From a virus (Duplodnaviria > Heunggongvirae > Uroviricota > Caudoviricetes), in IMG/VR virus record IMGVR_UViG_2695420822_000018: a stretch of DNA of 4,065 nucleotides; one strand, given 5' to 3'. Shown in pieces: positions 2,388 to 4,065 of this stretch. The stretch's first letter is position 1. Each line of letters opens with the position of its first letter. The translations under genes and the position numbers were made by a program. The notes beneath the pieces are model-generated. The model was not told the origin of the DNA. It made no database searches and saw only the letters and a list, made by a program, of their open reading frames with translations.

Positions 2388-3587
2388 ATGCTGTTTGTGC
2401 TTATTCTAAGCAACCGGGCAGCATCATACGGGGCAATTATGGCCGCATTACCATACATGCAACTGTACATAGCTGATTACCTGGCTGACACCATGCATTT
2501 GTCAGCAGAGGAGCACGGCGCGTATTTGTTGCTGATGTTCAATTACTGGCAAACAGGAAAGCCAATACCCAAAAACAGGTTGGCAAAAATTGCCCGTCTG
2601 ACTAACGAGCGATGGGTTGATGTTGAACCATCCTTGCGGGAGTTTTTTTGTGATAACGGCGACGAATGGATGCATCTTCGGATTGAGGAAGATCTGGCAT
2701 CTGTCAGAGAAAAATTAACCAAAAAATCAGCCGCAGGAAAAGCATCTGTTCAGGCCAGAAGAAGCAGAAAGGAAGCAGATGTTCAAACAAAACAAGAGAG
2801 AAATTTAACAGGTGTTCAAACAGATGTTGGAGTGATGTTCGAACATGATGCCAACACAAAGGCAACTAATAAAGATACAGATAAAGATCTAAAAACAGAT
2901 CTAACCCATCCCAAACCCTTCCCTTCCGGAAGGGAGTTTCGGGATTTTGTGGCTGGAGTGCTTGAGGGGAGATTATCTGGCGGTACTGCAGCGGAATTTT
3001 GTAATTCTGCGGTGGTTGCGTTGCAGGCTGCTGGCCTGGATGTCTGTCGTGAGTATCCGGTGCCAGAGCGTGGTGACGGTTGCGGAGGGCGGATTGATAT
3101 CGTCGTGACTGACAGGAACGGTGTCCGGTGTGGGAGCGAGCTTGACCGAAATTCTCCGCGACAGAAATCACTGCTCAAAATCGGTGCTGTTGAAACCGGG
3201 ATATGTGTCTTGCGGCGCAGTGATATCGCAAGGCACACCGAGCAGGGAATTCTGGTTATCGGTGGGGCTGTTCGCCAGAAAAAATTTGACCCGTTGTCAG
3301 TTGATCTGCCCGACTGGTTGCCAGAAACACTCTGGCATGAGTGGGTCCAGTTCAGGCAGGCATTGCGAAAACCGATTCGAACGGAGCAGGGCGCTAACGG
3401 GGCGATACGGGAACTGGAAAAATTCCGTCAGCAGGGTTTTACACCTGAGCAGGTGATTCGACACAGCATCGCCAATGAATACCAGGGTCTGTTCGCGCCG
3501 AAAGGTGTTCGGCCTGAGACGTTGCTCCGACAGGTTAACACCGTCTCGTTGCCGGACAGTGCGATCCCGCCAGGCTTCAGGGGGTAA
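2388..3587 (+). CDS. O-like replication initiation protein: DUF1376 (YdaU-like) N-domain, K/D/T-rich linker, Cys-containing central segment, DnaT-like C-terminal tail
   Basis: Long ORF, stop TAA at 3585-3587. An alternative start at 2439 (MAALPYMQLY...) is plausible because the first 17 residues (MLFVLILSNRAASYGAI) are hydrophobic and atypical. The C-terminus ...RQVNTVSLPDSAIPPGFRG matches the E. coli DnaT C-terminus (...RDVNTVSEPDSQIPPGFRG) as I recall it. It sits immediately upstream of the DnaC-like gene. Confidence 0.85.
   Translation: MLFVLILSNRAASYGAIMAALPYMQLYIADYLADTMHLSAEEHGAYLLLMFNYWQTGKPIPKNRLAKIARLTNERWVDVEPSLREFFCDNGDEWMHLRIEEDLASVREKLTKKSAAGKASVQARRSRKEADVQTKQERNLTGVQTDVGVMFEHDANTKATNKDTDKDLKTDLTHPKPFPSGREFRDFVAGVLEGRLSGGTAAEFCNSAVVALQAAGLDVCREYPVPERGDGCGGRIDIVVTDRNGVRCGSELDRNSPRQKSLLKIGAVETGICVLRRSDIARHTEQGILVIGGAVRQKKFDPLSVDLPDWLPETLWHEWVQFRQALRKPIRTEQGANGAIRELEKFRQQGFTPEQVIRHSIANEYQGLFAPKGVRPETLLRQVNTVSLPDSAIPPGFRG
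2743..2905. repeat. Iteron-like repeats (core TGTTC/TGTTG at 2747, 2780, 2813, 2825, 2836) followed by an AT-rich tract with two AGATCT palindromes; candidate phage origin inside the O-like gene
   Basis: Seen in sequence: cagatgttcaaaca, caggtgttcaaaca, cagatgttgg and gtgatgttcgaaca with 33-33-12-11 bp core spacing, then aaagatacagataaagatctaaaaacagatct. Established knowledge: the lambda origin lies inside the O gene and consists of iterons plus an AT-rich region. Origin function here is inference. Confidence 0.4.
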
Positions 3588-3593
3588 CAGACC

Positions 3594-4065
3594 ATGAAAA
3601 ATATTGCGACAGGAGGCGTTCTGGAGCGTATCCGCAGACTGACCCCACCACATGTAACCGCCCCATTCAGAACGGTTGCGGAGTGGCGCGAGTGGCAACT
3701 TGCTGAAGGCCAGAAACGTTGCGAGGAGATCAACCGCCTGAATCGTCAGTTGCGGGTGGAAAAAATCCTGAACCGCTCCGGCATCCAGCCGTTGCACCGG
3801 AAGTGTTCGTTTGCGAATTACCGGGCGCAGAACGACGGTCAGCGACATGCACTGAGTCAGGCGAAATCCATAGCTGACGAACTGATGACAGGCTGTACGA
3901 ATTTTGTGTTCAGCGGTAAGCCCGGCACCGGAAAAAATCATCTTGCAGACGCGATTGGCAACCGGCTGATGGCGAAGGGGCGTAGCGTGATTATCGTCAC
4001 CGTGTCCGATGTCATGAGCGTGTTGCATGAGAGCTACGACAACGGCAAATCCGGTGAAAAATTTT
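3594..4065 (+). CDS. DnaC-family replicative helicase loader (prophage paralog); 5' partial, continues past the window end
   Basis: ATG at 3594 with AGGGGG RBS. The translation MKNIATGGVLERIRRL...NRSGIQPLHRKCSFANYRAQNDGQRHALSQAKS...FSGKPGTGKNHLADAIGNRLMAKGRSVIIVTVSDVM aligns closely with E. coli DnaC, including the Walker A motif GKPGTGKN. No stop codon before the window end. Confidence 0.92.
   Translation, partial: MKNIATGGVLERIRRLTPPHVTAPFRTVAEWREWQLAEGQKRCEEINRLNRQLRVEKILNRSGIQPLHRKCSFANYRAQNDGQRHALSQAKSIADELMTGCTNFVFSGKPGTGKNHLADAIGNRLMAKGRSVIIVTVSDVMSVLHESYDNGKSGEKF

Follow-up and report, generated by a model that had tools for sequence, protein, structure and literature searches.

A predicted PD-(D/E)xK-fold cassette in the inter-domain linker of a YdaU-type prophage replication initiator

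Replication initiators of the O, YdaU and DnaD types are, to our knowledge, thought to act solely through DNA binding, melting and helicase recruitment. The stretch of 4,065 nucleotides (nt) from the IMG/VR virus record IMGVR_UViG_2695420822_000018, which is called the window here, encodes such an initiator of 399 amino acids (aa), and the question that it raises is what occupies the middle of this protein. The original prediction, made from the sequence of the window, picked out a central segment at 2916-3287 that could be a nuclease-like fold, a metal-binding domain or a purely structural one, and suggested an inserted module since the protein seemed longer than YdaU-type initiators. The quoted peptide does lie in the translation of the open reading frame (ORF) at 2388-3587 on the + strand, where it makes up residues 177-300. 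Based on profile comparisons and a structural model, we describe this segment as a domain in its own right, ~118 aa long and with a predicted PD-(D/E)xK fold. The parts of the gene are as follows.

2388-3587, + strand: whole ORF, a YdaU-type (lambda O-like) prophage replication initiator of 399 aa, from the ORF list.
2451-2699, + strand: DUF1376 domain at the N-terminus (aa 22-104), presumed to bind the origin (Pfam PF07120, E 7.3e-25; PHROG 6451, 'primosomal protein').
2901-3278, + strand: in-frame block, aa ~172-297, which is absent from the ordinary 285-aa ydaU and takes the place of 36 nt (protein and DNA alignments with locus L003).
3279-3587, + strand: C-terminal domain common with ordinary YdaU (O-like/DnaT-like tail), presumed to recruit the helicase or its loader (PHROG 18589, PHROG 678 and NCBIfam DnaT).

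The N-terminal assignment is clear, with 87.6 bits against a cut-off of 30.1 in the Pfam scan of the window protein, and DUF1376 is the sole Pfam domain found in it; the segment of aa 177-300 has no Pfam match. At the other end PHROG 18589 and PHROG 678, 'replication initiation O-like', match aa 296-386, and the NCBIfam scan yields no more than a weak DnaT-like match, at aa 381-399 (E 0.01). The ordinary Escherichia coli ydaU has 858 nt and encodes 285 aa, which agrees with the difference in length that had been suggested. Compared with YdaU of the Rac prophage (285 aa, DUF1376), the window protein is 96-100% identical over the N-terminal 171 aa and the C-terminal ~77 aa, with full identity to ordinary YdaU from aa 323 onward, and the gene occupies the same slot between ydaT and ydaV. 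The two differ where 12 residues of ordinary YdaU (PPLNPPRGNRGV) face a block of ~126 residues, and the stretch at 3279-3360 has diverged as well. An inserted module was rightly suspected, because the protein alignment shows this extra block in frame. End-to-end collinearity with the 285-aa protein fails at the block, and the window protein is a YdaU/DUF1376 initiator by its N-domain, yet non-collinear with that family.

What, then, is the fold of the block? The features on which the answer rests are listed here.

2919-3272, + strand: predicted PD-(D/E)xK (restriction-endonuclease-like) fold domain, aa 178-295.
3051-3053, + strand: codon of E222 on strand β-1, 92% conserved (column conservation over 151 sequences; strand from the model).
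3069-3098, + strand: R228-G-D230-G-x-x-G234-R-I-D237, the RGDG loop and β-2, with the candidate metal-binding D237 (conservation).
3135-3146, + strand: S250-E251-L-D253 on β-3, with D253 at the canonical Lys position (conservation, profile alignments and model).
3156-3182, + strand: P257-R258-x-K260-S261-x-x-K264-L265, a basic helix after β-3 with a candidate catalytic or phosphate-binding Lys (conservation of 83-99%).

AlphaFold2 modelling of the domain alone, with an alignment of 87 sequences, gave a predicted local distance difference test score (pLDDT) of 96.4 and a predicted template modelling score (pTM) of 0.89. The model has helices at residues 181-192, 201-214 and 259-265, strands at 218-225, 234-241, 247-253 and 270-275 and two more short strands, and the α-β-β-β-α-β core of restriction-endonuclease-like proteins is present in it. 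Of the structural checks that had been proposed, modelling thus delivered a recognizable core and the Foldseek search of the domain model against the PDB returned no significant match; at the sequence level, too, the segment has no counterpart among PDB chains. The single-sequence model of the whole 399-aa protein was uninformative (pLDDT 42).

The family profile built on the domain matches AF1548 (E 0.009), UPF0102, Cas4 and OkrAI, and in the alignments with AF1548, UPF0102 and Cas4 the catalytic Asp and Glu fall on D237 and E251, which makes these two the candidates for the acidic metal ligands typical of PD-(D/E)xK proteins. In a relaxed Pfam scan of 87 relatives, 34 matched REase_MTES_1575 (PF18741), nine Mrr_cat and six Hjc, with NucS_C, BamHI, UPF0102 and PDDEXK_4 matched by three each; the families matched by more than one relative all belong to the PDDEXK clan, none of them at its gathering score. 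The threshold of PF18741 (38.2 bits) was reached by no relative, the best E being 3e-5, homologues scoring 13.9-14.5 bits and the window segment giving no match. We place PF18741 in the DUF559/Vsr-like PD-(D/E)xK group, whose third strand, like that of the cassette, carries E-x-D instead of E-x-K. What sets the cassette family apart is its RGDG-x-x-GR loop and its PR-x-KS-x-x-KL helix. Judged by these profiles, the cassette is a distinct, uncurated PD-(D/E)xK family of which PF18741 is the nearest curated neighbour and not the family itself. Minimal PD-(D/E)xK structures (the NucS C-domain 2vld, AF1548 1y88, BamHI/OkrAI, Bax1 6p4o and Hjc) show 11-21% identity to the cassette, and their flanking elements and biological contexts are unlike those of the cassette.

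Conservation was read from the columns of an alignment of 151 domain sequences. E251 is conserved in 100%, D253, K264 and S261 in 99%, R276 in 98%, D237 and R258 in 97%, K260 (like E222) in 92% and D230 in 91%. The signature can be written as E222-x-x-V and R228-G-D230-G-R-x-G234-R-[IV]-D237-[LI]-V, followed by [AG]-I-E251-L-D253-R-x-S-P257-R258-x-K260-S261-x-x-K264-L265 and V-V-L-R276, and the window protein keeps all the near-invariant residues (E222, D230, D237, E251, D253, R258, K260, S261, K264 and R276). The codon next to the invariant E251 is AGC (S250; 3135-3137) in the window and ATC (Ile) in otherwise identical E. coli alleles; this Ser-250 allele is common to six IMG/VR contigs. The five cysteines that had been counted in the segment (C205, C220, C232, C248 and C273) are all there. 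None of them is conserved, C205 being His in 61% and C232 Arg in 65% of relatives, and a cysteine-based metal-binding domain is for this reason rejected.

The loose resemblance to PD-(D/E)xK nuclease cores that had been noticed therefore stands in part: the fold and the conserved D237 and E251 agree with it, and the third motif does not, being E-x-D in this family and not (D/E)-x-K. Asp occupies the canonical Lys position, and the conserved K260 and K264 sit on the helix that follows β-3. Lys-less variants occur within the PD-(D/E)xK superfamily, for example the E-x-E of BamHI, so that the missing strand Lys is compatible with membership of this fold class. It could also mean that the module has the fold but is catalytically inactive, and that it helps the initiator complex to assemble, through binding of a DNA structure or through oligomerisation, without cutting. 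The absent canonical Lys favours such a module and the active-site-like pattern of conservation disfavours it; on balance we consider it unlikely, though worth keeping in mind.

How widespread is the domain? When 1.84 billion representatives of clusters at 50% identity were searched exhaustively with the profile, 357 relatives were obtained at E <= 1e-3 (30 of them at E <= 1e-10), hence at least 357 clusters; a word-indexed homology search returned near-identical fragments only. Among the best 150 relatives, 63 are free-standing proteins of 83-145 aa and 87 are longer (154-505 aa), many of these carrying the domain mid-protein at about residues 120-330. Taking the window protein and these 87 together, the N-domains of the 88 long proteins include DUF1376 (seven), HTH_36 (seven), DUF6291 (five), Phage_rep_O (four, as in Providencia phage PSTCR7lys), DnaD_N and helix-turn-helix domains of the MarR, TrmB and Crp types, and their C-domains include Phg_2220_C (four) and DnaT (one). 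The hosts include E. coli, Providencia, Clostridia, Bacteroidota and Acidobacteriota, among them metagenome-assembled genomes (MAGs) of Kapaibacterium and Terriglobales, and a profile scan of genome contigs confirmed at least five loci. The closest named relative comes from Shigella sonnei. Based on these architectures, the cassette is modular, an optional insert in the inter-domain linker between exchangeable N- and C-domains.

Pfam, NCBIfam and PHROGs give the cassette domain no name or function; in PHROGs the region is part of PHROG 1347, 'unknown function', and the named relatives in a collection of 5.8 billion proteins are called 'hypothetical protein' or after their N-domain. It is a large phage and prophage family named in no library that we searched. 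A literature search, limited in reach, found no description of a nuclease-fold domain inside O/YdaU/DnaD-type initiators. What is new is the combination and the family; the fold and the initiator type were each already known, and the fold assignment as such is unsurprising.

Another question is whether the block is a working part of the gene. At each of the full-length loci in two E. coli chromosomes (L001 and L002, 99.8-99.9% identical to the window gene) the annotation by PGAP reports a pair of partial 'YdaU family' pseudogenes that leave precisely the block uncovered between them, because the YdaU models do not span the cassette; the whole protein is 114 aa longer than ordinary YdaU. Such pairs are called in every genome inspected, and they can be read as fragments of a broken ydaU with meaningless DNA between them, all the more since some alleles are truly disrupted by frameshift or upstream loss. 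The ORF is, however, open over 399 aa here and over 374-378 aa in other genomes, and the 399-aa protein was found identical in six IMG/VR contigs. When the central 354 nt were compared with 16 distinct alleles (Nei-Gojobori), the synonymous distance (dS) rose to ~2 with a nonsynonymous distance (dN) near 0.14, and dN/dS was 0.03-0.14 for the more diverged alleles; the block is under strong purifying selection. Intact ORFs, low dN/dS, the confident model and the many relatives together refute the pseudogene reading, to which we assign next to no probability. The antisense ORFs at 2816-3238 and 2866-3171 were likewise rejected, as the pattern of selection fits the + frame.

Several intact initiator genes of 374-399 aa are split or left partly unannotated by PGAP (L001 and L002, 6001-7200; L004, L005 and L006, ~3560-4700). 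Some other cassette alleles have truly decayed through frameshift or N-terminal loss, as expected in cryptic prophages, and the window copy is intact. In L026-L031, L040 and L091 ORFs of 212-251 aa start at or just before the cassette and the N-part is frameshifted or swapped for unrelated sequence upstream of ...ANTKATNKDTDKDLKTDLTHPKPF; these are either decayed copies or contig artefacts.

How did the block arrive? In the DNA alignment its left junction lies at ~2901, after ...AAAAACAGAT, and its right junction at ~3278, before AAAAAATTTGACCC; the cassette-free ydaU reads ...AAAAACAGAT/CCCCCCCTAAATCC... at this place. A repeat scan of 2650-3350 found no terminal inverted repeats or target duplication at 2901/3278. 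Insertion of a transposable element, whether a miniature inverted-repeat element (MITE) or an insertion sequence (IS), is rejected on the missing junction repeats and on a block that is in frame and under purifying selection. The splicing residues of an intein (N-terminal Cys/Ser, C-terminal His-Asn with Cys/Ser/Thr) are absent from the junctions ...KTD/LTHPKPF and ...GGAVRQ/KKFDPL, and an intein or intein-borne homing endonuclease is rejected on this ground. From 3279 to ~3360 the window has many differences from ordinary ydaU and is identical to the allele type of L004, which has another N-domain. Because the sequence after the right junction matches this allele and departs from ordinary ydaU, the window gene is a recombinant, with its N-half (DUF1376 and linker) from ydaU and its cassette and C-half from an L004-type initiator, and the block came in by module shuffling and not by transposition. 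Base composition was rejected as a sign of foreign origin: the cassette is richer in G+C than the N-half, but so is the shared C-domain.

L004, L005 and L006 have the block fused to another, unrelated N-domain (MASNWIKLEV..., PHROG 2509, 'replication initiation protein') in intact ORFs of 376-378 aa, and this fusion recurs in IMG/VR contigs, with ORFs of 374-378 aa across genomes. At these loci (L004 and L005, 3568-4698; L006, 3562-4698) the cassette and C-domain show 96-99% nucleotide identity, and the N-domain has no Pfam match and comes with an acidic EEEEEE linker.

The same junctions bear on the idea of a selfish, homing-endonuclease-like invader that entered the linker in frame and persists by cutting cassette-free alleles, with no role in replication. 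Homing endonucleases of the PD-(D/E)xK and Vsr-like kinds exist, the presence/absence polymorphism is clean, in frame and at a fixed site, the divergence of the flank to ~3360 suggests a tract of co-conversion or recombination, and some free-standing homologues adjoin HNH and GIY-YIG genes. Yet the fused architecture is old and broad, with many types of N- and C-domain and with hosts as far apart as E. coli, Providencia, Clostridia, Bacteroidota and Acidobacteriota MAGs; the domain always takes the same inter-domain position with the frame kept, the junctions (LTHPKP... ...GGAVRQ/KKF) lack intein motifs, and in Stx phages the gene of a homologue extends into the start of a helicase gene. Such an invader is in our judgement very unlikely.

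The distribution in E. coli shows how optional the cassette is. By megablast, 1506 of 5426 complete genomes match the gene and only two cover at least 80% of it; among the matches listed, the partial ones span 64% of the gene in two pieces and measure 858 nt in the record, the length of ordinary ydaU. The central block itself is found in 40 of the 5426 genomes, in one copy each, with every copy occupying the ydaU slot of a Rac-like prophage. The combination of DUF1376 with the cassette is whole in only two E. coli genomes, and the PHROG 2509-type N-domain was seen in all three loci inspected from the 38 further cassette-bearing genomes. The segment is accordingly no constant part of DUF1376 initiators, a possibility that would have spoken against an insertion: it is absent from most ydaU genes, and only seven of the 88 long cassette proteins have DUF1376. 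Because ydaU lacks it in ~1500 E. coli genomes, the cassette is not needed for basic initiation and its function is accessory.

The genes around the cassette point to replication. For the window gene and for the free-standing copies of the Stx2a phages the relevant features are these.

3594-4065, + strand: start of the downstream gene ydaV, which runs off the window (collinear with 'ATP-binding protein'/ydaV in L001 and L003).
L008, 2926-3303: free-standing 125-aa homologue in Stx2a phage TL-2011c (gp29).
L009, 2926-3303: free-standing 125-aa homologue in Stx2a phage PA2.

The start of ydaV lies 7 nt past the initiator stop, in the lambda-O-type order of initiator and then loader or helicase; we take YdaV to be a DnaC/IstB-like helicase loader, also by analogy with the neighbours of fused relatives. 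A Pfam scan of ten neighbour proteins from nine fused loci found four DnaC/IstB-like loaders (IstB_IS21/Bac_DnaA) and four DnaB helicases directly downstream, one DnaB behind a loader, one DnaG-type primase and one protein with no Pfam match. Fused cassette genes are constantly adjacent to helicase or loader genes. In Stx2a phages (TL-2011c, PA2 and phi191 type) the free-standing 125-aa homologue overlaps by 7 nt the start of a superfamily 2 (SF2) helicase gene (DEAD/ResIII), which is followed by a primase gene, and that region of L008 and L009 holds no O/P-type initiator. Free-standing copies also occur in early regions with lambda P, O and YqaJ genes.

Where would such a protein bind? Two features of the linker-coding region upstream of the block suggest an answer.

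2780-2845: three copies of the palindromic 10-mer TGTTCRAACA (at 2780, 2813 and 2836), candidate iterons in the linker-coding region, from a repeat search.
2868-2905: A+T-rich stretch (AATAAAGATACAGATAAAGATCTAAAAACAGATCTAA) lying immediately before the left junction of the block, a candidate site of unwinding.

The three sites within 66 nt count as six matches over both strands, where 0.86 would be expected in the window, and none of 200 shuffles reached six. The G+C content is 0.39-0.41 in windows over 2688-2927 against 0.51-0.59 from 2928 on. The origin of phage lambda lies inside gene O, and because the layout here resembles it, the repeats and the A+T-rich tract are probably the origin of the Rac-like prophage, lying inside its initiator gene. 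The likeness to lambda O (Phage_rep_O) goes further, to an N-terminal origin-binding domain, a C-domain for recruiting the helicase-loader complex, a next gene that encodes a loader or helicase and, in some cassette relatives, a true Phage_rep_O N-domain; the repeats and A+T-rich tract in the linker region are shared too, as an origin candidate only in the window. Lambda O differs in having no nuclease-fold domain, and the window N-domain is DUF1376.

If the N-domain guides a nuclease to iterons, the target could also be a foreign origin. In Odn of phage ICP1 a RepA_N-like DNA-binding domain is fused to a nuclease, and the PLE origin is cleaved at its iterons (PMC8263062). By this precedent the cassette initiator would be a conflict weapon, guided by its origin-binding domain to competing phages, prophages or satellites with the same iterons, whose origins it would destroy. 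Its optional and patchy occurrence, in 40 of ~1500 ydaU-bearing E. coli genomes, and its shuffling among N-domain types are what conflict-driven modules would show. The likeness, however, ends with an initiator-type DNA-binding domain fused to a nuclease domain and with cleavage directed to origin iterons. The Odn nuclease is of the T5orf172/GIY-YIG type and not PD-(D/E)xK, and Odn has no recruiting C-domain, does not serve its own element as initiator and is directed against the origin of a parasite. The window protein keeps its replisome-recruiting C-domain; the annotated E. coli loci hold it in the ydaU slot upstream of the loader, with no second initiator annotated nearby; and its own origin would be recognised and cut too. 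No PADLOC-DB defence model matched the protein or the domain, relatives giving only noise at E 0.01-0.05. We regard a weapon of this kind as decidedly improbable.

The reading that we prefer, and to which we give roughly an even chance, is that the cassette is a predicted active endonuclease or nickase, tethered to the origin, that assists helicase loading. The data show the inserted block, its purifying selection, fold, conserved residues and modular use, and the constant presence of helicase or loader genes beside the fused genes; that the domain cuts DNA, what it would cut and how this would aid helicase loading are inferred. The N-domain would tether the protein to the iterons within its own gene, and the cassette, thereby held beside the A+T-rich origin DNA, would cut or nick the DNA in a Mg2+-dependent manner. 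Metal would be bound by D237, E251 and D253, along with E222 and D230, and K260, K264 or R258 of the PR-x-KS-x-x-K helix may substitute for the canonical strand Lys. The resulting cut or nick could serve as entry point for the C-domain/YdaV/DnaB machinery or provide a 3'-OH for sigma-type replication. Initiators that cut the origin to start replication are known in the HUH-type rolling-circle Rep proteins (phiX174 gpA, P2 A and plasmid Rep); the likeness to the cassette initiator is a functional analogy only, as HUH Rep proteins have an unrelated fold and chemistry with a covalent Tyr intermediate and no loader-recruiting O-type C-domain.

Several points weigh against an active origin-tethered nuclease. 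The active site is non-canonical because the Lys of (D/E)xK is replaced by Asp; most ydaU genes lack the cassette, so it is not required for initiation as such; and a nick at the origin would release the supercoiling of which O-type initiators normally make use. Several free-standing copies lie in mixed early regions with HNH, GIY-YIG, amidase, RusA and Dam genes and not beside a helicase. Finally, position 250 is Ile, Leu or Val in 92% of relatives and Ser in the window allele, which may make the window copy weaker, perhaps through a mutation acquired in a lineage of cryptic prophages.

The remaining observations concern the window upstream of the initiator gene. Two divergent helix-turn-helix genes flank an intergenic region of 96 nt, one at 440-859 on the - strand (139 aa, repressor-like) and one at 956-1198 on the + strand (80 aa, Cro/YdaS-like); PGAP labels both as helix-turn-helix proteins in L001, and the pair is the prophage immunity switch, upstream of the replication genes. 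The stretch at 1195-2375 has runs of N at 1332-1336, 2053 and 2249-2259. In it the 5' end of ydaT is present twice (1195 and 1632), its 3' end three times (copies from near 1949, 2055 and 2271, with N runs between them), and there are two different ydaS-like genes (956-1198 and 1421-1648). The window is no plain piece of genome here: it looks like alternative ydaS/ydaT alleles placed end to end by an assembly scaffold or a flattened variant graph, and L011, L014 and L001 run collinearly with the window only beyond these duplicated pieces.

What does the cassette mean for initiators of this type? The locus is a clear case of three-way domain shuffling in initiator genes, in which N-domain, cassette and C-domain are exchanged. 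A conserved nuclease-fold cassette between the binding and the recruiting domain departs from the picture of initiators that bind, melt and recruit, and the free-standing copies before helicase genes likewise lie outside it. For annotation, intact genes under selection are systematically reported as pseudogene fragments by PGAP, and with a family model of its own for the domain, many phage and prophage genes would be recovered. One tentative and on present evidence unlikely extension is that a subset of O-like theta initiators have their own endonuclease, tethered to the origin, and nick near the A+T-rich tract, either to give DnaB and its loader an entry site or to supply the 3'-OH for a switch from theta to sigma replication. 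If true, nick-assisted initiation would account for the free-standing copies directly before replicative helicase genes, and it would be an important mechanism of initiation or mode switching that has not been described for lambdoid phages. If the cassette is active, it asks whether some temperate phages start or switch their replication by a nick, and whether origins serve as targets in phage-phage conflict, as they do for ICP1 Odn.

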